Shown: positions 4,920 through 34,376 of the stretch, in pieces
Position numbering within the stretch: position 1 is the first letter of the stretch
Layout: each line of letters starts with the position of its first letter
Program-made: the position numbers and the translations under genes
Assembly: GCA_900319955.1 (NCBI GenBank)
Contig: ONQM01000003.1
Location: 17,654-81,653, forward strand
DNA length: 64,000 nt
Direction of reading: 5' to 3'
Source of the DNA: an uncultured Eubacteriales bacterium
GTDB lineage: Bacteria; Bacillota_I; Bacilli_A; RF39; UBA660
Notes under the pieces: model-generated
Told to the model about the DNA's origin: nothing
The model's input: the letters and a program-made list of their open reading frames with translations, nothing else
The model's database searches: none

Positions 4920-5004
4920 AGTGTCACTACCCTTATCCTTATATAATGAATTATATCACATATAAAAAAAAATAACTATATTTTAGTTATTTTTATATTA
5001 AAAA

Positions 5005-7338: not shown

Positions 7339-8127
7339 TTAAACAGCAGTAGAAAACATACCCATCATCGCAATTAAAAGTATAAGCATAACACCAATAC
7401 CAGTACAAATAAGCATTGTCATTGTTTGATTTTCCATATGTTCTAGACGCTCTTTATATTTTACTTCACGAGCCTTATTTTGAAGATTAGAAACACTTCT
7501 TGAAAACATCATTAATCTTTCTTGTTTTCTCTCTTGAGAACCAATTCCAAGTCTATATAAAAGTCTCATCATACGCATTGAATCTCTAACAGGATAATCA
7601 TTAGCAAACTCCATATAAGGATCAACTGTAGAATCACCTGCATTAATCTCTTCAACCATCTTCTTTAAACCAGGCTTAAAAACATCAGGAGCATCATCAA
7701 TTGAACGTGCAAGAGCAACTGGAACAGTATAATGCTGTATTAATATTTCTAGTCCTTTTAAGTAATAAGGAAGTAGTAAATCTATCTCATGTAAATGTTT
7801 CTTATAGAAATTTTTTAAAGACCAATAACTAGACTTAAATGTTAAGAAACCAACAACAACTGATATAACAATATTTAAAAGACTTACAGTATTCATAAAA
7901 AGTATTAAAAATACTATTCCAACTATTAAACCATTTCTAAGTCTTTGTTCAAAAAGTACATCAGGATCTACTTTATCTCCATACTTCATACGAACTAAAA
8001 AGTCATAATCACTTTCTCTTAAAAGATTAAAAAGTTTAGAATTATCTTTAGCAAACTTTTTTGTATCAATAGTTTTATTGTATACAAGAACAAATAAAAT
8101 AATTCCACCAAATATAAGGACTTCCAT
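7339..8127 (-). CDS. TadC-like inner-membrane platform protein (type II secretion system F-domain family)
   Basis: 262 aa with the TM/cytoplasmic domain/TM/TM layout typical of TadB/TadC/GspF-type platform proteins. It sits immediately downstream of a second paralogue and of a CpaF ATPase gene, and its start at 8127 overlaps the upstream stop, suggesting translational coupling. Confidence 0.55.
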   Translation of the reverse strand: MEVLIFGGIILFVLVYNKTIDTKKFAKDNSKLFNLLRESDYDFLVRMKYGDKVDPDVLFEQRLRNGLIVGIVFLILFMNTVSLLNIVISVVVGFLTFKSSYWSLKNFYKKHLHEIDLLLPYYLKGLEILIQHYTVPVALARSIDDAPDVFKPGLKKMVEEINAGDSTVDPYMEFANDYPVRDSMRMMRLLYRLGIGSQERKQERLMMFSRSVSNLQNKAREVKYKERLEHMENQTMTMLICTGIGVMLILLIAMMGMFSTAV

Positions 8128-9020
8128 TACTCAGCACCTACATTCTCGTTATAATATTTTTCTCCTTTAATGAGAAAATAACTATTAATCAAAATTATAC
8201 CATGAAGTAATAATTTAACATACCATCTATCAAGTAAAAGGATATAACTTTCCTTACCTAGTAAATACTGAACTAAAAGGACAAGTACATATAGCATAAT
8301 ACCAAATTGTAAGAACCTCTTATGGAAGTTAGCTCTATCAATTCTATCTCTGTAAACACCTTCAACAAGAGTATCGATATCAAGTTGCATCTGCTCTAGT
8401 GAGTCTGCTGAGTTTCTCGCACCTTCCTTAGTTATCTGTAAGAATAATTGATGCATATTTTTAACTATATAAAACGGATATAAATTATTAAAATATTTAA
8501 TTGATTCATCAATGGAACCATTTTTATAAGCAAGCTCTATCATTCTATCAACATCACCAGCAACTGGATCTTCAAGAAGTCCAGATTCTCTAACACCTTC
8601 CAAACTTTTAACAAAAGATTGTCGAGTTGCAAATTCCATAATAGTGTTAGATGTATATACCTGTATTTGTTCAAAGATAAACTCACTATATATTCTTTTA
8701 CTTCTCAAATAAGCAAGATAAGGAACAAGTAAAATACCAAGAAAAACATATAAAGCTGCAGTAAAGATGTTATAGAAATATAAGTATGCAATAAGTCCTG
8801 CAAAACCACCTATTAAAACACACTGTATAATATAATCTCTAGGCTTATATTCCTTACCCAACTGCTTTGTCTTCTCTCTTACTTTTTTATATGAATAAGG
8901 AGCAAACTTATCATAAATAGATGTTATTTGGTCATTAATAAATCTAGTCGCATTCTTACCACTATAACCTCGATACATCATTACAAATATAGCAATAACT
9001 AATAGTATAAATAATTCCAT
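8127..9020 (-). CDS. TadB-like inner-membrane platform protein (T2SS-F domain family)
   Basis: 297 aa with an N-terminal TM, a roughly 200-aa cytoplasmic domain and two C-terminal TM helices. It is a paralogue-like partner of the adjacent gene and sits directly downstream of the CpaF-type ATPase. Confidence 0.55.
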   Translation of the reverse strand: MELFILLVIAIFVMMYRGYSGKNATRFINDQITSIYDKFAPYSYKKVREKTKQLGKEYKPRDYIIQCVLIGGFAGLIAYLYFYNIFTAALYVFLGILLVPYLAYLRSKRIYSEFIFEQIQVYTSNTIMEFATRQSFVKSLEGVRESGLLEDPVAGDVDRMIELAYKNGSIDESIKYFNNLYPFYIVKNMHQLFLQITKEGARNSADSLEQMQLDIDTLVEGVYRDRIDRANFHKRFLQFGIMLYVLVLLVQYLLGKESYILLLDRWYVKLLLHGIILINSYFLIKGEKYYNENVGAE

Positions 9021-9025
9021 ATATC

Positions 9026-10435
9026 TTAACCTCCGTTACTCATATTTTGCATGACGTTACTTGCATCTATTTGTGGCATTACTGGAACTTGTATATTAGA
9101 AGTTTGTGCATTACTAGGAATATTTACTTGTGCAGCACTTTGAGCATCTACATTAACACTTGAATTTAATGATGAATTTTCACTTGCTAAATTAATGTTA
9201 GTTGCAGGAATATTTTCAGTACCTGCTACAGCTTTCTCTTCCATTGTACCACCATTAAGTGCATTATTTAAAGCATTACTTTTTTCTTCACTTGGACCTG
9301 TTTCAGATTCTGCTTTCTGTGAAGCTTCAGCAAATCTCTTTGATTCATTCTCTTCTATTACCTTCTCAATATCAACATCAGGTAAATGAGCAAGAATATC
9401 ATCAATATTAAGATTTTGATTTTCTAGATATTCAACCAAATGTTTAGAAGGACGAGACATAATAGGATCCATATCATAAAGTTTTCTATAAAGAGTATGA
9501 CATACAGGTTTGTTATCTTCATCAACATAAAATTCAACAACCTCATCTACTTCACGATGGAACTTACCATACTTTTTAGAATAATAAGCTTTAATATGAA
9601 CACCAATTTGTACATAACGATAAATTGTATTTAAAAACTGATCAACATCAATATCTGTCTCAAGTAATGAATAAAGACGATAAGGAATTGCACTAGCTTT
9701 ATCAGCATGGATTGTTGATAAAATATTGTGTCCTGATGAAATAGAGTTACGTACAGCAGTAACTGCCTCAGCTGAACGAACCTCAGATAGTAAAATCCAT
9801 TTTGGATTCTGTCTCATACAGGTAACTAATACATCAGAGTATGATGCAACGTTATTAGTCTTCATTGCAACAATATCTCTAGTTGGAAAAATCTTATCAA
9901 GATGAAGTTCTAGAGTATCCTCAATTGTTATTATCTTTTCAGTCTCTTTAATATGACTTGCAAGATACTTAACAAACTCAGTTTTACCAGAACCAGTTTC
10001 ACCTGAAACAATTATGTTACAGTGTCCTTCAACACATTTCATTAATAAATCATGAATATCAGCAGTAAAATAATCTTCTGCAAGTAATTTTTCTTTCTTT
10101 AACCTTATCTTAGCAGGTGTTTTACGAATAACACATGCAATACCATTAGTAGCAATAGAAGGATGTACAAAGTTAAGACGTAACTCACTACTTTCTGCAT
10201 CTAGAAAAGGCTTAGCATTATTAAAGGTTGTACCCATAACATTAGAGCACTGAAAAGCAAGCTTTTCCATAAACTCTGGAGTACAACCTGGAACTTCTAC
10301 ACGAATGGAACCTTGAGATAAAGAACGAATCCAGATTTGTCCGCCATTACAATACGAGATATCGGTTATATCATCATTATCAAGTAGTGGTCTTAAAGGG
10401 CCAAAATCTAACTTATCAAATATATTTTCATTCAT
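9026..10435 (-). CDS. CpaF/TadA-family (VirB11-superfamily) secretion ATPase with a roughly 100-aa Ser/Asn/Ala/Gln-rich C-terminal tail
   Basis: Walker A motif GETGSGKT, Asp box ITIEDTLEL, Walker B-like LSEVRSAEA and His box STIHA, in the order characteristic of CpaF/TadA/VirB11 hexameric ATPases. The C-terminal low-complexity extension is ...ASQKAESETGPSEEKSNALNNALNGG...SSLNSSVNVDAQSAAQVNIPSNAQTSNIQ. Confidence 0.85.
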   Translation of the reverse strand: MNENIFDKLDFGPLRPLLDNDDITDISYCNGGQIWIRSLSQGSIRVEVPGCTPEFMEKLAFQCSNVMGTTFNNAKPFLDAESSELRLNFVHPSIATNGIACVIRKTPAKIRLKKEKLLAEDYFTADIHDLLMKCVEGHCNIIVSGETGSGKTEFVKYLASHIKETEKIITIEDTLELHLDKIFPTRDIVAMKTNNVASYSDVLVTCMRQNPKWILLSEVRSAEAVTAVRNSISSGHNILSTIHADKASAIPYRLYSLLETDIDVDQFLNTIYRYVQIGVHIKAYYSKKYGKFHREVDEVVEFYVDEDNKPVCHTLYRKLYDMDPIMSRPSKHLVEYLENQNLNIDDILAHLPDVDIEKVIEENESKRFAEASQKAESETGPSEEKSNALNNALNGGTMEEKAVAGTENIPATNINLASENSSLNSSVNVDAQSAAQVNIPSNAQTSNIQVPVMPQIDASNVMQNMSNGG

Positions 10436-10473: not shown

Positions 10474-11280
10474 TTATTGCATTGAATCTGTCCAATAAGT
10501 GACATTATTGATAAAGTCTTTAATATCTTTAGATGAAAGCTTTAAATCACCTGGATTAGACTTCTTACTTTCTGCAGTAGGAACTGGAGAAAGTTCAGTA
10601 CTATAGTTTCTTAAGTAATCTGCTTTCTTAAGTAAGATATAATATTCTTCTGGTACAGCAAATATTAACTGAGATGGTACTGCATTTTCATTTGTATTAG
10701 AGAATACATTCTTACCACTACTATCTCTAACAGCAAGTACTTTAACATTCTCAAGTAACTTACCAACCATAACTTTACCATTATTAGGATCATTTTCATC
10801 AGTAGATCCATAAGTAGCCTTAAAGTAAAGATCAATATAATTACCAGGGTATATTGAATTACTATAAGTAGTTTCCATATTAACACTCATATAATATAGA
10901 ACATATCCTTTTGGATAATCAAGAATAATACTATCAGGTAATTGATCTTTTTCAACAACACATCTAGTATAGAAAAGACTTCCAGAAGGAATCAAACAAT
11001 CTGCACCAGAGTATTTATCAATAACACTCTGTTTAGATCTATAAATATCACCTTTTATCATAGAAGGAGGAACTTGAGCTTCCCCAACCATGTCTTCTGT
11101 TATTTGAGTACTTGGATTAATTTCCTGAAGAGCATAAGGAACACTAATTGGATTAGTAGCTTGTTTAACTCTCCAGTTATAACCTATATATAATACAAGA
11201 ATAGCAAGTATTACACCAAGAACTGTAACAGTATTCTTATTAGTTAAAAATTTCTTTAAGCCAACCGTTATATTATTCAT
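10474..11280 (-). CDS. CpaB-like Flp/Tad assembly protein (N-terminal TM anchor plus SAF-like domain)
   Basis: 268 aa. TM helix VTVLGVILAILVLYIGY followed by a SAF-like segment (...PYALQEINPSTQITEDMV...), resembling the CpaB/RcpC N-terminus. It is positioned directly upstream of the CpaF-type ATPase, as in tad loci. Confidence 0.5.
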   Translation of the reverse strand: MNNITVGLKKFLTNKNTVTVLGVILAILVLYIGYNWRVKQATNPISVPYALQEINPSTQITEDMVGEAQVPPSMIKGDIYRSKQSVIDKYSGADCLIPSGSLFYTRCVVEKDQLPDSIILDYPKGYVLYYMSVNMETTYSNSIYPGNYIDLYFKATYGSTDENDPNNGKVMVGKLLENVKVLAVRDSSGKNVFSNTNENAVPSQLIFAVPEEYYILLKKADYLRNYSTELSPVPTAESKKSNPGDLKLSSKDIKDFINNVTYWTDSMQ

Positions 11281-11290
11281 TTTATTCCTC

Positions 11291-11794
11291 CTATTTACTT
11301 GGTAAATTATTTAAACCATTATAACTTGTAATCTTTAAATCTTTAATATAATCCTTATTTTTAGTTGTAACAGCTAAATTGTCTTTATTCTTAGTTTCAA
11401 TAATCATATCTGCAGTAGTTGTAATATCAACTTTATTTTCCCCACCTAATGCTTTTACAACAACAGTATTCTTAGGAGAAATTACTCTTATACTAACCTT
11501 AGGAGGTGTTTCATTAATATCATAAACTTTAATGTCATAATCACGAGTTCCCTCAACATTATTAGCAAAACGTTTTACAAAACTTTCCATAAACTTCTCT
11601 TTATCCATTCTGAGTAAGCCACTCTCTCTAAAGAAAGTATTATCAACTGCATCATTCATAGCAGCTTCTGTTGTCTCTTTTAATAGATAATAATCAAGTT
11701 CAGCACCAGTTTGTTGTCCACTAATAACACTAATTGAATAGAAACCTAATATTGCCATTAATATAATTCCAATTGTTAAAAATGCCTTATTCAC
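11291..11794 (-). CDS. Hypothetical small membrane-anchored protein (candidate pseudopilin-like or accessory component)
   Basis: 167 aa. N-terminal hydrophobic segment AFLTIGIILMAILGFYSISVISGQ, then a soluble domain. No TadE/Flp consensus was recognised. Confidence 0.5.
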   Translation of the reverse strand: MNKAFLTIGIILMAILGFYSISVISGQQTGAELDYYLLKETTEAAMNDAVDNTFFRESGLLRMDKEKFMESFVKRFANNVEGTRDYDIKVYDINETPPKVSIRVISPKNTVVVKALGGENKVDITTTADMIIETKNKDNLAVTTKNKDYIKDLKITSYNGLNNLPSK

Positions 11795-11811: not shown

Positions 11812-14800
11812 TTAACTAGCACTCTTTATAAAATTATTAAGAGTAGTCTTAGTATCCTCATCTATATCATAACTTGTTAAAGGATCACATGCTGTTCCAT
11901 TAAGAATATTATTACATTTTAATGCTTCTTCACTAGGCTTTCTAAGTAAAGAACCATAGCCTTCTGTAGTATTCTTACTACCCTCTGGTGAAGTTCTTAA
12001 AAATTTACTTACATAATACTTAATAGTTGGAATATCACTGCTTGGAGCATCATAGCCACCTTTTTCAGATGTATCTAATTTTGTAGCATCAGTATAATAT
12101 CCTGCATTCTTATATGCATCCCAATAATCTTCATTATTAATTGTCTTATAAGTACCATTTTTAAAATAAGTATAATCTTTATCACCATTTGTAATTTTAC
12201 GAATATTTTCTATATTCTTTTTATTTAAATAAATTTCATAATCAAGTTCATTATCATTGTTATAAATACTATCACCTTGAGATTTAATCTTAGCTGCTAA
12301 AAGTGTTGGTGTAATAGGATAATTAGCTATAGATAAATTAGTAGCATTAACACTCCAGTTAAAACCAGGTTGTCTGGAAGCAGAAGCACTTGTTTTTGCA
12401 TCTGCAACCTTCTTTACATTACCTGCTTGATACTCTACAGTACTTGTTGAAACTTTAGTAGATTTAGAAACCTTATTAGATGTTGGTTTAGTTCCACTTG
12501 ATGTAAACATATTTTGACTGTCATATGATCTAGCAACATAGTTACCCATTCTAGTTGTACATGTTTTATCAGTCTTATTATCACATGATGAATCAGGAAT
12601 TGATGAACATCCAGTACCAGTACAAGATACAGTCTTACAATTTGGATCCTTTGTTGTATCACAACTTGAAGTTTTTGTAGGATTTGGACAATTCTTAGTA
12701 TTAATTGGTTCAGGATCATCATCAAGTGCATAATAACATCCAGTCTTAAACTTCCAATCAAACATACCAAAGCTTTCTACCTTACTTATAATGTTATAAA
12801 CATCTGGTGTTGATTTACTAACTTTATCAAGTGTACAACCATTCTTAGCTCTTAGATATTCATCGAAGAATTTAACATTAACTTTCTTAGCAGTTGATGG
12901 TGTACAATACTTACCACTAACTTTCTTATACCATTGAGATTCTGCTGACATATCATCATAAACTACATAACCATGTTTATTTTCAATCCAAGCACCAGGG
13001 AATGTAATTATACCATGATATTGTGTAATTAATGCTTTAGTATTATTTTTCCAAGTACAATCAATCTTATTTCCATTTGCATCAGTATAAGAATCAGTCT
13101 TACCATCACAACCATCTACAACCTTACCAGCACACTGTCCAGCATTTAATTCAACAACTGTTGGGAATGAATGTGAAGCATTATTTAATTCTTTCTTCTT
13201 CTGCTCTTCCCCTTTTGCACTTGGGAACTTTCTACATAATTCTTGATCATAATTGCTTCCCTCACAAGATTGCTTATCAGTACTTGTATTATCAGTATCA
13301 TCATTTGCAGTCATAGTATAAGTGATACTATTGTCTTTACAATCATTTGCAGTATTTATACAATCAGCAATTTTACCAGTAAATGAAGATAAATCTTTTT
13401 CAAATTGTTTTTCAATCTCACCGGCAGTATCATAACAAACTGAAGTTGATGAAGATTTAGACCATTTGCAATTCCAAGTACAATTTTCATTTCTTCTAAA
13501 TCCAACACCATCATTATGTTCATCTTTAGTAGTATTTGGATAATATGAAGCACCTTTTTCATACATACCTAAGAAGCATTTATTCCAACCAAGTTTCTTA
13601 CATTCACTATAATTTGTTTCAGGAGAACATGTTGTGCTACCAACTAGCCAACTATTCTTATAATGATAATCTGTACAAACAGTTAAAGCTGCCATAGATT
13701 TATTCTTAAAATAATACTTAGCATATTTAGTCCAATAGCAATCAGAACTTGTTGCACTATCAGAGCCTTGAACATGTGAGTTAACATAATCATAAACTGC
13801 ATCAATATATCCATCAGGAACTTTTCCAGGAGTCGTACCACTTGCTAAAGTACCAGGGAAGTTTTTACATATTTCAGATTCTGTAAATTTAGAACCCTTA
13901 ACAGTATCGGTTTTCTTTAACTTAATTACATCACTAGATGTTGATTCTTTACCTTCTGTTGTTAATACATTATTATTTGAATTTTGTGCTAAATTATTTG
14001 ATACTTTTGATGTACTTGATACTTTTGTACCATATGCTTTATTAAAACATTTATTTATACATTTATCAGAATATTTTCCACCATCACAATCCAAAACGCA
14101 TAAATCAAATTCATCATCTGGTCCAGCTGATGCTGTATGTAAATCAGGTTTATTAGAATTTCCACCACCACATATAGGTGTATCTTGACAAGAAGCATTT
14201 TCATATTTTCTAAAATCAGGAATCTTATCAAAATCAGGTTTTACCACACATGATGTAGTACTCTTAATTTCTACTTTATATGTAAAACAATTACCAGGAG
14301 TTACAGCTTGAGGTGCATCAAATGCTATTGCAAGTTGTTCACGACAAGTATAACTGCAAACATTTTGAGCAACAGTTTTCTTAGAAGTTAATCCACTTTG
14401 ATTGAATAAAAGCATATCAGCTTTTACATCTTCAGCCTTATCATAATATAAATATTTATAAGTTTTTTCATTATCAAGTCTATTATCACAAGTTAACATA
14501 TCTTTTTTATTAGATTCTGCATTTTCATAACCAGTTTTATTAGTAGCTTGGTCTTTTAATTTGTCTTTACTGTCACGACCCTTTTTACTTAAGTCAGGAT
14601 CATCGACCTTTATCCATTTTTTATCTGATCCTTGAGTTAAATCAGGTAGTTTTGGATTATCAGGATCAATTCCTAAATCTCTCATTTTAGCTCTTTCAGA
14701 AATATAGTCTTCAAAAGTTTTTTCAAATGATGCCATATCTTCCTTTATCTTAGTAAGAATTTCATCTGAAATATTATAATCAACATAAGCATCTTTTGCA

Positions 14801-15969
14801 TCGTATCCTACAACCTTATCTCCACTAACAGAAACAGCTAAATTACCATTAGAATATCGAGGGAAACAAGGACCCATTGTTTTATTAACAAGAGCATCAG
14901 TATACTCATTCCATTCAGAATCAGATGCATGCTTATAGTATGATTTTACTGCCCATTCACATGCAGAGCCAGAACTAAAATCAGCAGATGTAGTTCTGTT
15001 TGTATTAGATGCAGCTATATTATTCAATATATTTGCTTCATCCTGTAAATCGCCACCATATGTTGTGTAATATGATTTTATTGTCATCTTCTTTTTGTTT
15101 TTCTTAGCATAAACTATGAATATTGCATATTCTCCACTATTTTCCACTTTAAAATCATATGTTGTATGCTTTGATGGTGTATAAGTTATAACTTTATCAT
15201 GTGGACCATTTGCATGATTTGCATACCACCAGTTTGTATATGCTTCTGCGCAAGTCTTATTGTTTACTCCTTTTTTGTTGCACGCATCTTTTTTCTTATA
15301 ATGTTTTACTTTTGCATCATATTCATCTTTATCAAAATCAACTGCTGCAATTTTTATTTTTTTATCTGTTGCATCCCCATTAGATATAAAAGTAACTGTT
15401 GAAGGGTCTGATATATGAAATTGGACTTGAAATCCAAATAATGATACATCAACTGGTTCTGGGTCAGTTAATGAACCTACATCAACTGAATCAGGATCAT
15501 CAACATCCTCATCTACATCAGGTTCTTCAGCTGTAGTAGTTGTAGTACTTTCATTTGAAGTTGTGCTTGAACTATTACTTGATGGTGTATATGAATTATT
15601 GCTAGTAGAACTGCTGCTTGAACTTGAGTTTGAATTAGAACTGTTAGAGCTTGCTTTAGCAACACATTCAGCATGTTTAGAATCAATTACATGTCTAGCA
15701 AAACCATCATTACATTTACAATTTGTACCTTTACTAGAAGCCCAAGAAGCATTTGCTTCGCAAGAACAAGTACTTCTACTAACTTTCTTACAATCACCAT
15801 TTTTCTTTTTGGCACCTGTACAATGACTTAATGTACCGCATCCATCAGCTGCATATACATTACTTTTGTTATTAAAATTTACATCGATTGTAAATCCAAA
15901 TAACATTACAATGGCTAGTAAAAATATTCCAACCCTCTTTTTATAACTATTTTTAGACATCTTCGCCAT
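11812..15969 (-). CDS. Giant cysteine-rich secreted protein (1385 aa) with a Ser/Thr-rich linker, an acidic region and many CxxC/C-rich modules
   Basis: Signal peptide MAKMSKNSYKKRVGIFLLAIVMLFGFTIDVNFNNKSNVYA-ADGCG. Poly-Ser/Thr linker SSNSSNSNSSSSSSSTSNNSYTPSSNSSSTTSNESTTTTTAEEPDVDEDVDDPD. Dozens of Cys are spread through the protein (e.g. TSSCDTTKDPNCKTVSCTGTGCSSIPDSSCDNKTDKTCT). There is no LPXTG-type C-terminus. The start overlaps the upstream sortase gene by 17 nt. Confidence 0.8.
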   Translation of the reverse strand: MAKMSKNSYKKRVGIFLLAIVMLFGFTIDVNFNNKSNVYAADGCGTLSHCTGAKKKNGDCKKVSRSTCSCEANASWASSKGTNCKCNDGFARHVIDSKHAECVAKASSNSSNSNSSSSSSSTSNNSYTPSSNSSSTTSNESTTTTTAEEPDVDEDVDDPDSVDVGSLTDPEPVDVSLFGFQVQFHISDPSTVTFISNGDATDKKIKIAAVDFDKDEYDAKVKHYKKKDACNKKGVNNKTCAEAYTNWWYANHANGPHDKVITYTPSKHTTYDFKVENSGEYAIFIVYAKKNKKKMTIKSYYTTYGGDLQDEANILNNIAASNTNRTTSADFSSGSACEWAVKSYYKHASDSEWNEYTDALVNKTMGPCFPRYSNGNLAVSVSGDKVVGYDAKDAYVDYNISDEILTKIKEDMASFEKTFEDYISERAKMRDLGIDPDNPKLPDLTQGSDKKWIKVDDPDLSKKGRDSKDKLKDQATNKTGYENAESNKKDMLTCDNRLDNEKTYKYLYYDKAEDVKADMLLFNQSGLTSKKTVAQNVCSYTCREQLAIAFDAPQAVTPGNCFTYKVEIKSTTSCVVKPDFDKIPDFRKYENASCQDTPICGGGNSNKPDLHTASAGPDDEFDLCVLDCDGGKYSDKCINKCFNKAYGTKVSSTSKVSNNLAQNSNNNVLTTEGKESTSSDVIKLKKTDTVKGSKFTESEICKNFPGTLASGTTPGKVPDGYIDAVYDYVNSHVQGSDSATSSDCYWTKYAKYYFKNKSMAALTVCTDYHYKNSWLVGSTTCSPETNYSECKKLGWNKCFLGMYEKGASYYPNTTKDEHNDGVGFRRNENCTWNCKWSKSSSTSVCYDTAGEIEKQFEKDLSSFTGKIADCINTANDCKDNSITYTMTANDDTDNTSTDKQSCEGSNYDQELCRKFPSAKGEEQKKKELNNASHSFPTVVELNAGQCAGKVVDGCDGKTDSYTDANGNKIDCTWKNNTKALITQYHGIITFPGAWIENKHGYVVYDDMSAESQWYKKVSGKYCTPSTAKKVNVKFFDEYLRAKNGCTLDKVSKSTPDVYNIISKVESFGMFDWKFKTGCYYALDDDPEPINTKNCPNPTKTSSCDTTKDPNCKTVSCTGTGCSSIPDSSCDNKTDKTCTTRMGNYVARSYDSQNMFTSSGTKPTSNKVSKSTKVSTSTVEYQAGNVKKVADAKTSASASRQPGFNWSVNATNLSIANYPITPTLLAAKIKSQGDSIYNNDNELDYEIYLNKKNIENIRKITNGDKDYTYFKNGTYKTINNEDYWDAYKNAGYYTDATKLDTSEKGGYDAPSSDIPTIKYYVSKFLRTSPEGSKNTTEGYGSLLRKPSEEALKCNNILNGTACDPLTSYDIDEDTKTTLNNFIKSAS

Positions 15970-16756
15970 CTCCTTCTAATATTTTTTTGATTTTTTTATA
16001 GTCCTTCTTTTCATGCATATCATAATTATACCCTTTATTACTATTTTTTACAAGTTTTCCATCAACTTTTAAATAATAATGATAAGGACCTAATAATCTC
16101 GTACACGTATATAAAGAAATTAACTTATCTTCTTTATTTACATCAATATCATATTTATAAATACTTTCTTTTAATGAGTCTTTTATAAATTTTTTCTTAA
16201 TTGTTTTTGTAATGCTATTAGGAAAATAATAAACTTCATTATCATTTATTATTGAAACACCATATATTTGATATAAATAATTAACATTGTTAAATGTAAA
16301 TTGTATATACTTATTTTTATCAGCAAAATCACTATAAACAAAAGCCATTAATGGTTCAAATCTTTGCAATTTCTTATCATTTACCTTTGGATGTGGTCCA
16401 ACATTAATATAGTTGTGACCAAAAATTGGAATAAAATCTGAAAGTTTTTTTTCAGGTTTATTAATCCAAGCATAATTATCAAGTGATGGATATGTTTCAG
16501 ATGAAACTGGCATATCAATGTTAGTACCTTGTACCTTAATCCATCCAATTACCTTATCTTTTTTACTTTTCTTTTTCAACTTCTCAACATTTTTTGTTCT
16601 ATCTTCTACCTTATATATAGGGAAAAATTTATTACTGATTTTCTCTCTATTTATAACAAGAATTATAGCAAACAAAATGAGAAGTAATAAAAGAATTATA
16701 ACATGTTTGTTTATCATCTTTGATGCTTTTTTTTCTTTTCTTATATTTCTTTTCAT
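15953..16756 (-). CDS. Class B sortase-like transpeptidase (SrtB family)
   Basis: N-terminal TM anchor. KVIGWIKVQGTNIDMPV matches the SrtB N-terminal signature (compare S. aureus SrtB IVGWIKLSGTSLNYPV and C. difficile SrtB IGWLQVQDTNINYPV). The His motif is IFGHNY and the Cys motif is KLISLYTCT (TLxTC-type). The position aligned to the catalytic Arg is uncertain and may be His. Confidence 0.7.
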   Translation of the reverse strand: MKRNIRKEKKASKMINKHVIILLLLLILFAIILVINREKISNKFFPIYKVEDRTKNVEKLKKKSKKDKVIGWIKVQGTNIDMPVSSETYPSLDNYAWINKPEKKLSDFIPIFGHNYINVGPHPKVNDKKLQRFEPLMAFVYSDFADKNKYIQFTFNNVNYLYQIYGVSIINDNEVYYFPNSITKTIKKKFIKDSLKESIYKYDIDVNKEDKLISLYTCTRLLGPYHYYLKVDGKLVKNSNKGYNYDMHEKKDYKKIKKILEGDGEDV

Positions 16757-16775: not shown

Positions 16776-18527
16776 CTAATAACTTATTGTATATGGGTCT
16801 TGCTTAGTTCCAGAACCACTAACAACTACTGCATCATTTCTTAAATAACCTGCAATCTTTGTTGAAGATGCATAAGCAAAATTTGCAATTGGAAAATAAA
16901 TTGTACCATTTCCACTACCATAATATTGCTTATATTTTTTACTATACTCTATATACCAAGTTTGACCATTAATATTTGAGTAAAAATCAAATAAAGATGG
17001 CAACGATATTTTAATATTATATGTTTTTGATTCATGTTTTCCATTGTATGTTGGATATGAACTATATATATTTGCAGAAACTTTATGTTTTTTAAATATA
17101 TTAGTACTAATTTGTCTAGAAATATTATTTTCTACTGAATAACCAATATTATTATTTTTATTTGGGTTGTATTTACTATTATTAACTATGTTATCATCAA
17201 ACTCATAAGAATAATTTGATATAACTTTAACATTTTTTGAATCATTAGAAGAAACTCTAAATAATTGTCCTCTATATGAAATATACTCTCCTACTCTTAG
17301 TTTACTAACTTTTGTTCCACCTTTTAATTCCTTGAAGTTATCTATTACATATGGATTCTCATAAGATCCAGTTCCTTTTTTAATTAAAGTACTCTTTTTA
17401 ATAACAAAAACTGGCCTAACACTAAATATATAGTTCTTATTATAGTCTAAATATTTACTAGACTGACCATTAAATGAATATCTAGTTGTCCATGCCTCTT
17501 TACTATTTTTACTATTATACGTCCAACTAATAGTATCAGGATAAAGAAAACTTCCCCCCTCCTTTGTTAAGCTACTATTATACTCATTTATTGACAAAAG
17601 TCCAGAATTTCCAATATTTTTCTTTGAATTACATGTTGTTATTTTGTCTTTATCTTTAGATGAAACGGTATCAGAACAGAAATTATAGTTTGTAACAACA
17701 TACTTCTTACTATCATTAGTTAAAGTGTCATAAAAATCATTCAAGTAATCTTTTATTGAATTAAAATCAATATGACCTACATCTTCATTTGCAACTATCT
17801 TTGTATTACCATCACTATCAAGTCCTACTATTCTATAAAGTTGTCCACTAAACATTATGTAATTATCTCCATCACCAACATAAACATTACTCTTACCAGT
17901 AGCTTTCTCAACTGTCTTAGAAAGATTTTGTGTAACCTTAACAGTTCTAGTTACTTCAGTTTTATTCTCTAAAGTATCAACAGCACTATAAGTAATAGTA
18001 TATACTCCATTCTTACTTGTATCAACATCACTTGATACAGCAACATCTTTTGCATTTATTTTACCATCATTATTATCTATAACACTCTTAACACCAGGAT
18101 CTTTAAATTTAGAATATCTTTCTACATTAATAGTATCATTACCATTTAATGTAATAACAGGTCCAGTATGATCTATATTAGAAGAAAATATACCACATTT
18201 TAAATAAGTATAATATAAATACTGTCCTTCTTTTCTTTTTACTTTAACAAAACTATGTCTAGTATCACAAGTATCATGATTATAAGCAGTTCTTAAATCA
18301 GGAATATACTTTTTATCTAAAAGTTCAACACCATTAATAGTTCTAATTTCTCCTTCTTCTGGTAAAAGATTTTTATTTATTTCAAAATATCTTTTAGCAC
18401 CTTTAAGTAAAGTACTTTCATTTTCATTAAACTTAATTAATGGAAATATAAATAATAAATAAATAATTAGTAAAACTCCCGCAATTACAAGTATTTTAGT
18501 AACTGACTTTTTAGTATCATTTTTCAT
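16776..18527 (-). CDS. N-terminally anchored surface protein with a bacterial Ig-like (DUF5011-like) domain and GxGxxxxPY(V/T)I motifs
   Basis: 583 aa. Type-II-style N-terminal TM (ILVIAGVLLIIYLLFIFPLI). HTGPVITLNGNDTINVERYSKFKDPGVKSVIDNNDGKI matches the DUF5011 Ig-like pattern. GTGSYENPYVIDNF and GSGTKQDPYTISY occur in the C-terminal half. No C-terminal sorting signal. Confidence 0.65.
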   Translation of the reverse strand: MKNDTKKSVTKILVIAGVLLIIYLLFIFPLIKFNENESTLLKGAKRYFEINKNLLPEEGEIRTINGVELLDKKYIPDLRTAYNHDTCDTRHSFVKVKRKEGQYLYYTYLKCGIFSSNIDHTGPVITLNGNDTINVERYSKFKDPGVKSVIDNNDGKINAKDVAVSSDVDTSKNGVYTITYSAVDTLENKTEVTRTVKVTQNLSKTVEKATGKSNVYVGDGDNYIMFSGQLYRIVGLDSDGNTKIVANEDVGHIDFNSIKDYLNDFYDTLTNDSKKYVVTNYNFCSDTVSSKDKDKITTCNSKKNIGNSGLLSINEYNSSLTKEGGSFLYPDTISWTYNSKNSKEAWTTRYSFNGQSSKYLDYNKNYIFSVRPVFVIKKSTLIKKGTGSYENPYVIDNFKELKGGTKVSKLRVGEYISYRGQLFRVSSNDSKNVKVISNYSYEFDDNIVNNSKYNPNKNNNIGYSVENNISRQISTNIFKKHKVSANIYSSYPTYNGKHESKTYNIKISLPSLFDFYSNINGQTWYIEYSKKYKQYYGSGNGTIYFPIANFAYASSTKIAGYLRNDAVVVSGSGTKQDPYTISY

Positions 18528-18545: not shown

Positions 18546-20102
18546 TTATTTTATATCTAATATGTACCTTTTATTTCTTATTGTACATATTATATCTAAA
18601 TCATTACTTGATGCCTCTTTATTTGTTAATTTAATAAATACTTCTTTACCATCATTATGAGTTGAAACTGCATTTTTTACATCATCATATTTATATTTTT
18701 TACTCTTTCCTACTCTGTATTTAATTTTACCATACTCATTTAAAAAGTCAATAAAATCTTCCCCTTCAAAGTCACTACCAGCAAAAGTAATTTTGAGTAT
18801 TTTGCCTTTATTATTTCTTACACTATCTGTATTTACCTTACAGTCATCAGCAGCTTCACAGTAGTATCTTCTATAAGTAAAATTATCACCAATCTCTGCA
18901 GTTAATGGAGTTAACTCTTTATAACTTCCATCCATATATTCAAATTTAATTTTTTTATTTAAATTATAAGTACCAATATCTTTGATATTGCTTATATCAG
19001 TAATATTTAATTTTATTTTTCTTAATATATTTAGATTATCTAGCTCCTGATAATATAAAACAAACTTATTATTCTTAAGCTTCTCATCTTCCTTAAATAT
19101 TAAATAAACTTTCTTGCCTTGTCCACTATATAAGTTGATGTTATCATCAACCCCACTACCAATATCTTTAAATGAATCATTATAAAATGTATTATAAATT
19201 TTTATAGATGATTTATTAACTAAATGATATCTATCAAAATTAACTGTAACTCTTCTATTAGATCTATTAATAACATTAACACCAATTATTACAAACTTAT
19301 TTCCCTTTTCTATAACATTACCTGCATAATCTTTATCAGTAACATAAGCATCAGTAATAGTAATATTATAAATACCAGCATTAAAGCTTTTACCTTGCTT
19401 ATAACTTCTATGTGTTATAAAGAAATTAAATATATTAAATATAAGTATTATTGAAAGTCCAGTAAGAGCTATATTACAAACAAGCTTATGTTCAAAGTAA
19501 AAATACTTAATATTTCTTAAAACTCTATTAAATACCCTTCTAATACTTCTTTTATCAAAGTCAAAAGATACTTCAAACTCTGCTCTATCATCTTCAGAAA
19601 GCTCTAAGAATTCTTTATCTTTTTCGAATCCAAACTTCTTAATATCTGCTCCAAGTATTCTAGCAAGTAAAAGAAACATAATAGGATACATTAGGAAATG
19701 ACTTATATTAATAATATCTCTATAAGGAAGAATACCTGAAAGTTCTGAAAGAGGAGTATAATCACTAAAGTAATTTGAAGCTCCATTAACGCCAACAAGA
19801 ACTAAAACAAATATAGCAAAATAAACAAGATAAATCTTCCAAGGTTTTTTCTTTCTAACAAGAAGTACCATTAAAGCAAGACATGCAAGAATAACAAATA
19901 TAACTGCTAAATAGAAAAGTACTCCAACATGACTTGAAAAGGACTCTACACTAGCATCATAAGACTCAAATCTAATAAACTCCTTAACAAAATTTAATAT
20001 ATTAAGAAGTTTAAAATAAATGAAAACTACACATGCTAAAATAACTATATGTATTTTCTTAAAGTTTTTAATTAAAAAGGCATAAGGTTTTCTAAATATC
20101 AT
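18546..20102 (-). CDS. Polytopic membrane protein (4-5 N-terminal TM helices) with a large C-terminal extracytoplasmic domain; first gene of the operon
   Basis: 518-aa ORF, hydrophobic N-terminal third and a soluble C-terminal domain. It is preceded by a 190-bp intergenic region. Confidence 0.6.
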   Translation of the reverse strand: MIFRKPYAFLIKNFKKIHIVILACVVFIYFKLLNILNFVKEFIRFESYDASVESFSSHVGVLFYLAVIFVILACLALMVLLVRKKKPWKIYLVYFAIFVLVLVGVNGASNYFSDYTPLSELSGILPYRDIINISHFLMYPIMFLLLARILGADIKKFGFEKDKEFLELSEDDRAEFEVSFDFDKRSIRRVFNRVLRNIKYFYFEHKLVCNIALTGLSIILIFNIFNFFITHRSYKQGKSFNAGIYNITITDAYVTDKDYAGNVIEKGNKFVIIGVNVINRSNRRVTVNFDRYHLVNKSSIKIYNTFYNDSFKDIGSGVDDNINLYSGQGKKVYLIFKEDEKLKNNKFVLYYQELDNLNILRKIKLNITDISNIKDIGTYNLNKKIKFEYMDGSYKELTPLTAEIGDNFTYRRYYCEAADDCKVNTDSVRNNKGKILKITFAGSDFEGEDFIDFLNEYGKIKYRVGKSKKYKYDDVKNAVSTHNDGKEVFIKLTNKEASSNDLDIICTIRNKRYILDIK

Positions 20103-20244
20103 AATTACTATTCCCCTTTACTCTAAGATAATTATAAACTTTTAAAGCAAATTTGACAATAAGAAAGTAATAGGTTATATCATTAAGCAGAAAGAGGTGT
20201 CCCGCATCAAACATTTTTTACTGGTGGGAGGCTCCCCTTTTTCT

Positions 20245-20274
20245 CTTGATTAAATAATTATATATATGTTATAA
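20245..20274 (+). promoter_or_regulatory. Sigma-A-like promoter for the thioredoxin-like lipoprotein gene
   Basis: TTGATT (20245-20250), a 17-18-nt spacer, then TATAAT-like ttataat (20268-20274). GAGG lies 8 nt upstream of the ATG at 20296. Confidence 0.4.
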
Positions 20275-20295
20275 TTTTTTCTGGAATGAGGTTAG

Positions 20296-20703
20296 ATGAT
20301 GAAAAAAGTAGTAAAAGTATTATTAATAGTTATTTCTTTAATGTTACTAACTGGTTGTAAAAATAATATGGAAAGAATTACATATAGTGATTTAGAAGAT
20401 AAAATAAAAGATAAAGATACATTTATAATGGAAGTATCACAAGATGGTTGTAGTCATTGTGAAGAATATAAACCAATTATAGATGAAGTATTAAACGATA
20501 ATAATTTAACAGCATATAATTTAAATATAACTTATCTAAGTGAACAAGATTATAATAAATTTGATAAAAAATATACATTTGAAGGAACACCAACAACTAT
20601 GTTCTTTAAAGATGGTAAAGAAGTTTTATCAAGTAGACTTGTAGGTACAGTTAGTAAAACAAAATTAAAGAAAGAATTAAAAAGATTAGGTTACATCAAA
20701 TAA
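20296..20703 (+). CDS. Secreted thioredoxin-fold lipoprotein (CxxC thiol-disulfide oxidoreductase-like)
   Basis: Lipobox LLTGC. CxxC motif CSHC. cis-Pro-type motif EGTPTTMFF. 135 aa. Confidence 0.75.
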   Translation: MMKKVVKVLLIVISLMLLTGCKNNMERITYSDLEDKIKDKDTFIMEVSQDGCSHCEEYKPIIDEVLNDNNLTAYNLNITYLSEQDYNKFDKKYTFEGTPTTMFFKDGKEVLSSRLVGTVSKTKLKKELKRLGYIK

Positions 20704-20722
20704 CCTAATCTTTTATTATTTA

Positions 20723-21197: not shown

Positions 21198-22973
21198 TTA
21201 CTCTACTGTTACACTTTTAGCAAGATTTTTTGGCTTATCTATATCACAACCCCTCAGATCTGCAACATAATAAGAAAGAAGCTGTAAAGCTGGAACTACT
21301 ACCATAGGTTCAATAAAGTATTCTGCATAAGGAAGTGTAAGTTTTAAATCATAAGGAATATCAAACTCATCTGTTGTAATAAGTATACCTCTAGCACCTC
21401 TTGACTCAACCTCTTTTAAATTAGAAAGGGTCTTATCTTTAATATTTTTATCAGTGATAATTGCAAAAACCACTGTTCCATTTTCTATTAATGAAATAGT
21501 ACCATGCTTAAGCTCACCTGATGCATAACATTCACTATGAATATATGAAACTTCCTTTAACTTTAAAGATGCTTCCATAGAAATTGCATAATCTATAAGT
21601 CTTCCTATAAAGAAACAATTATCTATTTTATATACTTTATTAGCAAGATCTTTAATTTCTTCTTTTTTACTATAAACATTTTCAATTAAAGAAGGTAACT
21701 TTTTATATTCATCAAGAACATTTTTTTCGAGTTTACCAATTTTAATAGATGTCTTAATGCCCATTAATGAAAGAACAAGTACTTGCATAATATATGCTTT
21801 AGTTGTTGCAACAGCAGTTTCAATACCAGCATCAGTCATAATAACCATATCTGACTCCCTTGCAATAGTTGAGCCTTCTCTATTAACTATACCAAGAGTT
21901 TTAATACCACTTTCTTTAGCTTCTCTTAAAGCTGCAATAGTATCTGCTGTCTCACCACTTTGTGATATTAAAATAATTAATGTATGTTCTTTATCTAAAT
22001 ATATTTTATCTTCATATCTATATTCACTTGCCATATTAACACTTACCTTAATAGATGCATACTTTTCAATTATATATTTACCAGCAAGTCCTGCATGCAT
22101 TGCAGATCCACATGCAACAATATCTATGTATTTATAAGGAGTAAGATCAAACTCACTAAAATCACTATATAAATACTTTGAAAGAAAACACCTAACTAAT
22201 TGAGCTTCTTCCATTATTTCTTTAAGCATATAATGTTTATATTCTCCCTTAGATGTATCAAAATTATAATTTTTAATATCAACTATTTTTTCTTTTACTT
22301 CTTTTAAATCTTTATAATATTTAATATCTTTTTGAGATAATACAGCGACAACATTTGTATCTAAATAAACTATTGATTTAACTTTATTTCCAAGTGCACT
22401 AATATCAGATGCTGCAAAAAACTCATTATCACCATACCCAATAATTAAAGGACTATCTTTTCTTATTGCATAAAGTTTTGTATCACCATCAAACATAATA
22501 ACAAGTGCATAACTTCCCTCTAAATCTTTAACTGCATCACAAATAGCTTTTAGTGCATCACCCTTATAGTAATAATTTATTAAAGCAGCAACTACTTCAC
22601 TATCAGTATCACCATAAAACTTAACACCTTTTTTCTTTAAATTCTCTTTTAATGAATCACTATTTTCAATAATTCCGTTATGAACAAGTGTTACCTTACC
22701 ATTTGTATGAGGATGAGCATTTGATAAAGTAACACCCCCATTAGTTGCCCATCTAGTATGTGCTATACCAAATAAACCATCCATCTTACTTTCATTATTT
22801 ACTTTGTCTTCAAGAGCTTTAACTCTTCCAACACTTTTAATTATTTCTTTATTTTTACCATCAGAAATAGCTATTCCTGCTGAATCATATCCTCTATACT
22901 CTAATGCTTTAAGCCCCTCTATTAAAATCTTTTTAACATTTCTTTTTCCATTATAACCAATTATTCCACACAT
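21198..22973 (-). CDS. glmS: Glutamine--fructose-6-phosphate aminotransferase (isomerising)
   Basis: The true N-terminus is MCGIIGY, with the Ntn Cys2. The ORF-track start at 23069 is a spurious extension that reads through the ribozyme leader. The protein has a glutamine amidotransferase domain followed by two SIS domains, and GGAGG lies upstream of the ATG at 22973. Confidence 0.95.
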   Translation of the reverse strand: MCGIIGYNGKRNVKKILIEGLKALEYRGYDSAGIAISDGKNKEIIKSVGRVKALEDKVNNESKMDGLFGIAHTRWATNGGVTLSNAHPHTNGKVTLVHNGIIENSDSLKENLKKKGVKFYGDTDSEVVAALINYYYKGDALKAICDAVKDLEGSYALVIMFDGDTKLYAIRKDSPLIIGYGDNEFFAASDISALGNKVKSIVYLDTNVVAVLSQKDIKYYKDLKEVKEKIVDIKNYNFDTSKGEYKHYMLKEIMEEAQLVRCFLSKYLYSDFSEFDLTPYKYIDIVACGSAMHAGLAGKYIIEKYASIKVSVNMASEYRYEDKIYLDKEHTLIILISQSGETADTIAALREAKESGIKTLGIVNREGSTIARESDMVIMTDAGIETAVATTKAYIMQVLVLSLMGIKTSIKIGKLEKNVLDEYKKLPSLIENVYSKKEEIKDLANKVYKIDNCFFIGRLIDYAISMEASLKLKEVSYIHSECYASGELKHGTISLIENGTVVFAIITDKNIKDKTLSNLKEVESRGARGILITTDEFDIPYDLKLTLPYAEYFIEPMVVVPALQLLSYYVADLRGCDIDKPKNLAKSVTVE

Positions 22974-22989
22974 ATTTTTCCTCCACAAT

Positions 22990-23130
22990 AAAAATATATA
23001 TGATTCATCTTTTGTTATAATGTTAATTTTATACTTTGTAATGAATCTAACGATTTCCCGTAATAGCATCCGCCGAATAATTCGATAACTATTAACCTCG
23101 TTAACTTTAGAAGTCTGGCGCTTATAATAA
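22990..23130 (-). ncRNA. glmS ribozyme: glmS ribozyme (GlcN6P-dependent self-cleaving riboswitch) in the glmS 5' UTR
   Basis: The minus-strand RNA reads ...A^GCGCCAGACUUCUAAAGUUAACGAGGUUAAUAGUUAUCGAAUUAUUCGGCGGAUGCUAUUACGGGAAAUCG... This matches the conserved core AGCGCCAGAACU / GACGAGG / GUUAUCGAAUUUUCGGCGGAUGC, and the cleavage-site A-G maps to 23122/23121. Confidence 0.8.
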
Positions 23131-23217
23131 ACTTACAACCTTTCTCATTTATTATATTAAAATAATTATAATATTAAAAAAAAAGAAAGTCAAAATACTT
23201 TTGAAAAAAAATATATT

Positions 23218-28279: not shown

Positions 28280-28720
28280 TTAACGCTTAGCATTTCTTCT
28301 TAAAGAAAATGTCTTAGGTCTTTCTCTAAATGATATTTCAGAAACAATTAGATTTTCTACATTTACTTCATGAACTTCTGTTCTACATGGATCTGCTTTT
28401 GATGGATCAGATGCTGCTTCTAGTGCTGTTTTACATCTTATGTATGTTTTAGCATCATCAAGTGTTGTCCATGGTTTAATTCTATCAGTGTAGTCTTCCA
28501 AAGTTGGTTCAAATGTACAAAAGTCATTATGATTCTTACTTTCATATATAATGAATGACCTATAATTATCTTCTTGTCCGTCAACATTTACAACATAAAT
28601 TTTAGCACGACGTCCATTTTTATTTAACCATGAGCATGCAAATACTGGATCATAATTTTCCATATTTTCTCTTATGTACTCACAAAGCTCACTCGGCTTG
28701 TGTATTTCTTCGTATTTCAT
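28280..28720 (-). CDS. Hypothetical protein
   Basis: 146-aa ORF with a short RBS-like region. No recognisable family. Confidence 0.5.
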   Translation of the reverse strand: MKYEEIHKPSELCEYIRENMENYDPVFACSWLNKNGRRAKIYVVNVDGQEDNYRSFIIYESKNHNDFCTFEPTLEDYTDRIKPWTTLDDAKTYIRCKTALEAASDPSKADPCRTEVHEVNVENLIVSEISFRERPKTFSLRRNAKR

Positions 28721-31148: not shown

Positions 31149-31694
31149 TTATTTAACTCCCTTCAAAATATAAACTTTACCATGACCACCTTTAGTATGG
31201 TCATAATTTCTAATTTCGTTTGCTTCTTCCATAGAAACACCATAGTATATTGCAAGATTAGTTGTCATCTGTTCATAATCCGTAATAGCTTTTAAATAGT
31301 TTTTATCTTCTATTTCATTTGAAATTTTAACTAAATATATATCATAAATAGTACTGCAAAAATCTTTATCTTTTTCTTTATCAATATATCCTGCAATTAC
31401 TGGTCCAACAGTATCATATTCTTTTAAGATTTCACTAAATTTTTCATCTTTTTGCATAAATTCATCACGTAAAAATCTTAAATTTTGCATAGTTTTACAT
31501 TTATCATCTTTGCCTAATACTTCATGTACTACTGTTGTGATATAGCATAGTGATGGACTATTATAGTTTTTATCTTTAAAGTTAGAACAAGCTGATTCAT
31601 TTCCATAATAGTACTGTCTATATCTTTCACAGTATCCTTTAGAGCTTGGAGAAAATCCTGGATCAAACCAAGTACAATCAAAACAGTTTCCCAT
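31149..31694 (-). CDS. Hypothetical protein with a Cys-rich N-terminus (MGNCFDCTWFDP...C...C)
   Basis: 181 aa. Cysteines suggest a possible Zn-ribbon-like N-terminus. No family recognised. Confidence 0.45.
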   Translation of the reverse strand: MGNCFDCTWFDPGFSPSSKGYCERYRQYYYGNESACSNFKDKNYNSPSLCYITTVVHEVLGKDDKCKTMQNLRFLRDEFMQKDEKFSEILKEYDTVGPVIAGYIDKEKDKDFCSTIYDIYLVKISNEIEDKNYLKAITDYEQMTTNLAIYYGVSMEEANEIRNYDHTKGGHGKVYILKGVK

Positions 31695-33946: not shown

Positions 33947-34376
33947 TCATAGAAATTATAAGTATTATAACACCAAATACTACATATGTATCTGCTAAAT
34001 TAAATATAGGGAAGTAGTATTTAAATATAACTATACCAATAAAATCTATTACTTTACCAAATACTACTCTATCTATTAAATTACCTATTAATCCACTAAT
34101 AATTAGTATTATAGATATCTTAGAAGCTTTTTCATCTAACTTCTTATAATAACTAATTAAGAAATAAAGAACTATTAAACTTATAATTATAAGAAGCCAT
34201 CTTTTACCTTCAAAAAGACTAAAAGCAGATCCAGTATTAGTAACATAAGTTAAATAAAATTTATTTTTAATTATATCAATAACCTCCAAGTAATTAATAA
34301 ATTTAGTAGCTAGCACTTTCGTTATTCTATCAGTTAAAATCAAAATAATCGTTAAAATTAAATCTTTCTTTTTCAT
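33900..34376 (-). CDS. lspA: Lipoprotein signal peptidase (signal peptidase II)
   Basis: NTGSAFSLF, GNLIDR and FNLADT motifs. 4 TM helices. Confidence 0.85.
   Translation of the reverse strand: MKKKDLILTIILILTDRITKVLATKFINYLEVIDIIKNKFYLTYVTNTGSAFSLFEGKRWLLIIISLIVLYFLISYYKKLDEKASKISIILIISGLIGNLIDRVVFGKVIDFIGIVIFKYYFPIFNLADTYVVFGVIILIISMIGSDNSERINSRRRH

Follow-up and report, generated by a model that had tools for sequence, protein, structure and literature searches.

A putative thioredoxin-fold lipoprotein encoded head-to-head with a Tad-like operon in uncultured Bacillota, and its possible role in the folding of cysteine-rich exported proteins

Some Gram-positive oxidoreductases are known to give pilus components their disulfides, among them BdbD/BdbC, which serves ComGC in B. 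subtilis, and MdbA, which serves pilus assembly in Actinobacteria. Precedents also exist for oxidoreductases linked to particular substrates: PedC for bacteriocins (PMC4919988); TrbB of the F plasmid, a thioredoxin-fold isomerase of the F-type type IV secretion system (T4SS) (PMC11315126); and BdbDC, which according to a statement in PMC10246001 (citing Meima 2002) acts on the competence pilin ComGC. Here we consider a locus within 64,000 nt of contig ONQM01000003.1, a stretch that we call the window at its full length. In it, a small gene for a thioredoxin-fold protein (20296..20703, plus strand; the product is called Trx below) stands head-to-head with a minus-strand operon that runs from 20102 down to 7339 and encodes Tad-like secretion proteins together with a large Cys-rich secreted protein (the giant). 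We think it somewhat probable that Trx is a lipid-tethered thiol-disulfide oxidoreductase (an oxidase and/or isomerase) and that products of the operon are likely to be its main clients; both the direction of catalysis and the identity of the clients are inferred from sequence and gene context.

Oxidoreductases associated with pili or secretion are already a known theme and the type of enzyme is familiar. Like the PedC/BrcD/BdbA proteins (TIGR01295; PMC4919988), Trx is a small (~120-150 aa) exported or anchored Firmicutes protein with a thioredoxin fold and a CxxC motif, encoded beside a Cys-containing candidate client; unlike theirs, its gene adjoins a Tad-like pilus/secretion operon, its candidate clients are large proteins and there are no bacteriocin genes. 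With TrbB it has in common a CxxC thioredoxin fold and a gene placed with those of a pilus/secretion apparatus, whose Cys-rich periplasmic components TrbB is thought to fold, and in relatives of the window the Tad-like operon leads into T4SS-like genes. TrbB, however, belongs to the periplasm of Gram-negative bacteria and is recycled by DsbD, whereas the window locus has neither DsbD nor CcdA. The window's Trx shows no significant sequence relationship to TrbB, and the Trx of one set of relatives (group B, below) matches it weakly (E = 0.0047). BdbD and MdbA differ in having a DsbA-like helical insertion and a membrane partner (BdbC or VKOR), whereas Trx is minimal and has no partner in sight. 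The CxHC dipeptide and the classical fold recall the a-domains of eukaryotic protein disulfide isomerase (PDI), but Trx is a bacterial, lipid-anchored single domain without the b/b′ substrate-binding domains. Finally, a DUF5411 + CpaF + PilC system of gut Clostridia, predicted by Miller et al. to be secretion-related (PMC9523054), resembles the window operon in its DUF5411 protein, CpaF-type ATPase and platform-like membrane proteins; the portion of that paper concerned with the system describes it without a thioredoxin or a Cys-rich giant, and the window operon has a sortase-like protein, an Ig-like protein and the giant in addition. A literature search on DUF5411, DUF6568, PF17424 and PF20207 gave one paper, which mentions DUF5411 alone.

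By the tests run, Trx lies outside the PedC/BrcD, DsbA and TlpA/ResA families. It scores 38.7 bits against NCBIfam TIGR01295, where membership begins at 120 bits. There is no match to the DSBA Pfam model at E ≤ 10 and no DsbB or VKOR partner gene was found, which separates it from DsbA, BdbD and MdbA; the lack of any Redoxin or AhpC-TSA Pfam match, and of CcdA or DsbD nearby, separates it from TlpA, ResA and CcmG. By analogy, Trx may work in the manner of the substrate-linked PedC/BdbA, TrbB and BdbDC oxidoreductases.

An earlier sequence-only reading of this DNA had described a small lipoprotein with an LLTGC lipobox, a thioredoxin fold and a CSHC site, and all of these features are indeed present. 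The N-terminus (MMKKVVKVLLIVISLMLL-TG-C21) has a positively charged n-region and a hydrophobic h-region and satisfies the lipobox pattern [LVI][ASTVI][GAS]C. Over 20 homologues, the invariant residues are C21, C52, H54, C55 and G97-T98-P99-T100. Pfam Thioredoxin (PF00085) gives 36 bits against a gathering cut-off of 23.5, making Trx a member of the superfamily, and an AlphaFold2 (AF2) model built on the homologue alignment (predicted local distance difference test score, pLDDT, 89.8) has a minimal classical thioredoxin fold (βαβαβαββα) in which C52-C55 straddle the beginning of helix H53-68. All top Foldseek matches to the model are thioredoxins or DsbD-gamma-type domains, with probability 1.00 to many thioredoxins, and neither the model nor these matches contain a DsbA-like helical insertion. 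In a profile search of PDB sequences the best matches were PDI a-domains bearing CGHC (E = 6.5e-15). CxHC is the dipeptide type of oxidising or isomerising enzymes (CGHC in PDI, CPHC in DsbA), and CGPC that of reducing thioredoxin; because the window motif is of the former type, we read Trx as an oxidase or isomerase.

Placement of Trx within the superfamily goes no further than the generic thioredoxins, with possible membership in DUF6568 (PF20207) of the newest Pfam: precomputed matches from Pfam version.5 are listed for all 19 Trx homologues, whereas the version.4 model leaves the window's Trx unmatched at E ≤ 10 and matches a separate 171-aa protein, 'trx2', of group-C loci. The reading frame opens with ATGATG, and the true start may be at 20299, since homologues begin at the second Met. 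The window encodes LspA, which makes processing as a lipoprotein plausible; Lgt was not seen there.

A link between Trx and the operon is indicated by their recurrent pairing. A forward scan for Trx, with a sequence pattern and one genome per GTDB species, yielded 48 loci, all in metagenome-assembled genomes labelled as uncultured Bacilli, 'Tenericutes', Erysipelotrichaceae, Candidatus Coprovivens or 'Clostridiales'. The organism had been thought to be of Clostridia type, which is uncertain, as relatives carry one of the first four labels as often as Clostridiales. By gene context the loci fall into groups A, B and C. A reverse scan, in which metagenomes were searched with a DUF5411 alignment, gave 80 contigs bearing the operon, of which ~28 contain its first gene together with DNA upstream. 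Conservation of the divergent pair, the check that the sequence-only reading had named, comes out positive: 28 GTDB species genomes and another 11 contigs from metagenomes have the head-to-head arrangement, at Trx identities as low as ~30-37%.

In group A (the window, L001-L008 and L030; n = 10) all ten lipoproteins, which keep the lipobox throughout, are head-to-head with the same operon, and as Trx identity declines (88% to 37%), that of the first operon gene declines with it (70% to 32%). In group B (~28 loci) a transmembrane-anchored Trx of ~150 aa is followed by genes for a CPBP protease and a metallophosphoesterase, and the operon is differently organised: a 250-aa secreted protein, the giant (890-2506 aa, 27-66 Cys), DUF5411, CpaB, TadABC and pilins. 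The first operon genes differ from those of group A and the sortase-like gene is missing, yet Trx is kept and is head-to-head with the operon at 18 of the ~21 loci whose contigs reach far enough upstream. Groups A and B both keep the CxHC dipeptide (motif variants were surveyed over the 48 loci), and the far-side flank of Trx changes between species, even within group A. A neighbour-joining tree built on the first operon gene places the Trx-adjacent state on its deepest branches and gathers the contigs without an adjacent Trx into two groups, which suggests that adjacency is ancestral and was lost at least twice.

The candidate clients are marked by their cysteines. As the sequence-only reading had claimed, the operon's 1385-aa protein is Cys-rich: the giant (11812..15969) has 51 Cys (3.68%), and the 48 other open reading frames (ORFs) of the window average 0.98%. 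Over nine group-A species, 18 of the 51 are invariant and Cys is the best-conserved residue type (65% mean, with Tyr next at 44%). The giant has no Pfam or NCBIfam match and no cell-wall anchor, and a homology search with it found five relatives without Pfam domains. It evolves fast and as a mosaic: P0026 is 65% identical overall, with ~560 virtually identical C-terminal residues and a diverged N-terminal part, and P0027 and P0028 have near-identical C-terminal halves, a pattern that suggests recombination shuffling a variable N-terminal part. A hidden Markov model made from group-A giants missed those of group B, which were found by profile-profile comparison through a common C-terminal module (hhalign 95%). 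An AF2 model of residues 480-1385 from a 4-sequence alignment had a pLDDT of 30.4 and no usable fold.

Other operon products also carry conserved cysteines. All four Cys of the 583-aa Ig-like protein (Ig583) are invariant in 43 homologues, the C415/C421 pair of the 518-aa membrane protein (mem518) is invariant in 39 homologues, and the sortase-like protein has one invariant Cys (LYTCT). At group-B loci, Flp-like pilins of 71-79 aa are encoded in pairs and contain 4-6 Cys within ~50 mature residues (L009:1564-2067, L012:441-911); those group-A-type pilins that were examined contain no Cys. Firmicutes are reported to keep Cys, in general, out of what they export (PMC2823432); against that background, several exported proteins with invariant Cys, together with a linked Trx, come as a mild surprise.

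A second, even more Cys-rich protein that had been read as secreted lies 38 kb from Trx. Its Cys count holds, but an N-terminal signal-anchor helix makes it probably membrane-tethered rather than freely secreted. It consists of ~28 copies of a 36-bp (12-aa) unit, CDxDGDGKCDRN, followed by a ~200-aa non-repetitive C-terminal domain; the repeats resemble calcium-binding thrombospondin-type-3-like repeats and have no Pfam match. Two smaller ORFs, 31149..31694 and 28280..28720 (both minus strand), have 7 Cys in 181 and 5 in 146 residues, no family match and no obvious signal peptide, and are probably cytoplasmic metal-binding proteins. At the window's edge, and running past it, 3..4955 (minus strand) encodes a secreted protein of >1639 aa with four ALK/LTK glycine-rich domains (E = 2.6e-120), a cadherin-like domain and 0.8% Cys.

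We propose the following mechanism. The mature Trx domain would be tethered by lipidated Cys21 on the outer face of the cytoplasmic membrane, where C52-S-H-C55, beside cis-Pro99, would form or isomerise disulfides in proteins leaving the Sec channel. Its principal clients would likely be the giant, Ig583 (as two invariant Cys pairs) and mem518 (one pair); in relatives, minor pilins and the Cys-rich major pilins of group B could be added, and Trx may also serve further Cys-rich exported proteins, for example the 668-aa repeat protein. Because no DsbB, VKOR, CcdA or DsbD gene lies nearby, it is suggested that a small-molecule disulfide may recycle Trx, as reported for the partner-independent DsbA of C. 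botulinum (PMC12453122). We considered mem518 as a DsbB-like partner, but its C-x5-C pair lies in the extracellular domain and not in a transmembrane loop, so that it looks like a client. The extracytoplasmic thiol-disulfide folding helper expected from sequence is supported in part, by an exported Trx with CxHC, by recurrent synteny and by conserved Cys in the operon's products; an obligatory pairing is contradicted by operons that have no adjacent Trx.

Trx could, however, be a general housekeeping extracytoplasmic oxidoreductase of the lineage, standing beside the operon through inherited synteny without a specific tie. We hold this to be possible rather than probable; it differs from a dedicated folding helper in specificity only, not in chemistry. 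A number of observations weigh against the dedicated role, and many of them are what such a housekeeping enzyme would predict. The family is partly conserved independently of the operon, an outcome that the sequence-only reading had named as contrary to its view: the 11 loci of group C, often with CSAC and with Trx identities of 30-37%, share a LysM-Trx-AAA-DUF6568-TrmL context, and at the six of them where 4-10 kb upstream is readable no Tad operon lies within it, and three group-B loci (L011, L026, L036) have no Tad operon within 4-10 kb upstream although Trx keeps its CPBP and metallophosphoesterase neighbours. Conversely, the reverse scan found a divergent Trx on 11 of the ~28 usable contigs, while ~17 have GreA or DUF6568-TrmL upstream and no adjacent Trx, and the giants of these contigs are equally Cys-rich (29-41 Cys). 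In the Trx tree, group A joins B and group C joins L030, which carries a C-type Trx though it adjoins the operon; this suggests a single family that follows the lineages, and not a paralogue specific to the operon, and the pattern scan gave one Trx locus per genome, with one Trx-like ORF in the window. What speaks against a housekeeping role is that the head-to-head pairing recurs at such depths of Trx divergence while the other flank turns over, that it is kept although group A and group B start their operons with different genes, and that the two transcription units have a compact shared control region. Three further points count against the folding-helper reading: no redox partner (DsbB, VKOR, CcdA or DsbD) is encoded in the window or beside Trx at any locus examined; the rumen or gut habitat is anoxic, and disulfide formation there needs an oxidant; and the Cys number is even in 16 of 27 giants, with no clear even bias, as counted after a crude signal-peptide cut.

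The anaerobic setting bears on the chemistry in another way, for Trx could be the end of a reductase arm (Etrx/ResA/CcmG-like) that keeps extracytoplasmic thiols reduced, such as the catalytic Cys of the sortase-like protein, or that repairs oxidised proteins. The probable strict anaerobiosis of the host fits this, as do the classical minimal fold without a DsbA helical insert, the single invariant Cys of the sortase-like protein, and the Thr that precedes the cis-Pro, as it does in DsbC/DsbG-type enzymes. We nevertheless regard it as unlikely: the CxHC of groups A and B is typically found in enzymes that oxidise or isomerise, no locus examined offers CcdA or DsbD as electron supplier, Redoxin and AhpC-TSA models do not match, and group-B operons without a sortase-like gene keep Trx. 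Maturation of a nearby disulfide-containing peptide, as by a PedC/BrcD/BdbA-type bacteriocin accessory protein, appears very improbable. TIGR01295 (PedC_BrcD) is the best NCBIfam match in all three Trx groups (35-43 bits, also in B and C), 1zma, a 'bacteriocin transport accessory protein', is among the profile matches, and the annotated homologues nearest to Trx (42% identity over 81 aa) lie on Enterococcus faecalis plasmids beside ABC-transporter, glycosyltransferase and DUF6568 genes. Those scores are nevertheless far under the cut-off, and neither in the window nor at the ~60 related loci examined is Trx flanked by a gene for a bacteriocin precursor, a C39-ABC exporter or immunity; the window neighbours are GtrA, GlmS and the Tad-like operon. 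A bacteriocin-accessory thioredoxin with cognate genes, which the sequence-only reading had kept in mind as a contrary outcome, was therefore not what we found.

Table 1. Coordinates of the Trx gene, the divergent operon and associated features in the window
Feature	Position	Strand	Details
Trx-fold lipoprotein gene	20296..20703	+	135 aa; alternative start 20299 gives 134 aa
Signal peptide with lipobox LLTG-C21	20296..20358	+	Cys codon 20356..20358
Active site C52-S-H-C55	20449..20460	+	read from sequence
cis-Proline loop T98-P99-T100	20587..20595	+	P99 codon 20590..20592; aligns to PDI/Trx cis-Pro
Divergent intergenic spacer	20103..20295	.	193 bp between Trx and operon
Promoter-like site for trx (TTGATT-18-TG-TATAAT)	20246..20275	+	10/12, extended -10
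Promoter-like site for operon (TTGTCA-17-TATAAT)	20131..20159	-	11/12, sigma-70-like
GC-rich hairpin insertion between both promoters	20180..20250	+	~70 nt
Bidirectional terminator-like hairpin	20680..20714	.	common to trx and convergent gtrA; overlaps trx stop codon
Gene 1: 518-aa polytopic membrane protein (mem518)	18546..20102	-	extracellular domain, weak DUF4352 match
Gene 2: 583-aa membrane-anchored Ig-like surface protein (Ig583)	16776..18527	-	four Cys
Gene 3: 267-aa class-B-sortase-like protein	15953..16756	-	FGHN...LYTCT
Gene 4: 1385-aa secreted Cys-rich giant	11812..15969	-	Sec signal peptide ...VYA/AD
Gene 5: DUF5411 protein	11291..11794	-	E = 9.7e-45
Gene 6: CpaB/RcpC-like pilus assembly protein	10474..11280	-	RcpC 30.8 bits vs cut-off 28.8
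Gene 7: TadA/CpaF/VirB11-type secretion ATPase	9026..10435	-	T2SSE E = 1.1e-28
Genes 8-9: two membrane proteins, TadB/TadC position	7339..9020	-	without family match
LspA (signal peptidase II)	33900..34376	-	needed for lipoprotein processing
Second Cys-rich protein	58005..60011	-	668 aa, 76 Cys (11.4%)

The operon itself (Table 1) has the TadA/CpaF-type ATPase and the CpaB protein expected of a Tad/type IVc system, although the NCBIfam TadA and VirB11 models match the ATPase below their cut-offs. No Flp-type pilin, pseudopilin or prepilin peptidase was found in the window, where a search for pilin homologues also came back empty, and no prepilin peptidase was identified in the related loci inspected. 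ISL3-family transposase fragments (DDE_Tnp_ISL3, E = 2.8e-41; 5930..7150, minus strand) lie directly after the last Tad gene. The window operon looks cut off by an insertion, as relatives carry pilin, minor-pilin and T4SS-like genes at that point.

In intact relatives, the Tad genes are followed by a Flp-like pilin (MKEA[T/S]GELNMTVV...), minor pilins, a 325-aa protein and T4SS-like genes. The last (L085:16058-20420, L058:16940-20396, L116:16070-20420) encode a small VirB2-like membrane protein, a ~700-aa TrbL_4/VirB6-like protein (Pfam E = 4.5e-8) and a 63-aa PrgI-like protein, together with a product whose 93-aa start looks VirB4-like by eye and has no Pfam match. The whole Tad + T4SS-like cluster of the relatives may be a conjugation-type or hybrid machine. 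DUF5411 found no match in a plasmid collection, which thus gives no evidence of a plasmid-borne operon. Elsewhere in the window, among housekeeping genes (MurC, ComEC), 48158..48571 (minus strand) encodes a 137-aa membrane protein with 30-34% identity to the VirB2-like proteins from the relatives' cluster and a weak match to the T4SS_pilin Pfam model (E = 1.2e-3).

The ~190-bp promoter region that Trx and the operon had been said to have in common proved to be a 193-bp spacer with two promoter-like sites, from which co-regulation of trx and the operon may be inferred. In relatives the intergenic region measures 90-130 bp and a TTTACA...TGTTATAAT promoter is conserved, back-to-back with the -10 element of the operon. 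The GC-rich hairpin between the promoters of the window (-23 kcal/mol on the plus strand, z = -2.1, with a T-run after it) is present in a single copy in the window and missing from the eight related intergenic regions compared; Rfam gave no credible match to the intergenic region, the hairpin included.

On its other side Trx has GtrA and GlmS as neighbours. A glmS ribozyme lies upstream of glmS (22992..23133, minus strand; Rfam RF00234, 60.7 bits), and the glmS ORF as listed (21198..23069) overlaps it, so that the real start is probably an internal Met (MCGIIGY...). Outside the chromosomal relatives, E. faecalis plasmid pBE32_1 (L129; NZ_CP110051.1: 36316..37100) carries the nearest annotated homologue of Trx, a 'thioredoxin family protein', whose gene adjoins a glycosyltransferase gene, pieces of an ABC transporter and the gene of a 'DUF6568 family protein', in a layout that looks like a glycocin/sublancin-type bacteriocin cluster; the same pairing of Trx with DUF6568 recurs in the chromosomal context of group C.

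Finally, we note that the apparatus is arguably a more novel object than Trx: an uncharacterised Tad-like operon with DUF5411, a sortase-like protein and a giant, joined at intact loci by T4SS-like genes. A more far-reaching idea, which we put forward tentatively and consider doubtful, is that Trx is an integral part of an undescribed Gram-positive surface machine to which it would be anciently linked. In its intact versions such a machine would combine a DUF5411/Tad-like pilus, a sortase-like enzyme, a Cys-rich, mosaic and fast-evolving giant adhesin and T4SS-like (TrbL/VirB4-type) genes, and its assembly would depend on catalysed disulfides, partner-free, in strict anaerobes among the gut and rumen Bacillota. 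If true, it would be an exception to the 'cysteine exclusion' of Firmicutes, brought about by a PDI-like CxHC thioredoxin without DsbB or VKOR.

Hardly any work exists on oxidative folding in the anaerobic Bacillota of gut and rumen, and the locus offers a testable pair of enzyme and client. The pairing of Trx with the operon is found in a widespread uncultured lineage, in which the apparatus may mediate adhesion or mating. If the link is real, Trx would serve as a handle for the heterologous expression and study of the Tad-like apparatus, and would provide an example of disulfide catalysis that is independent of DsbB and VKOR.

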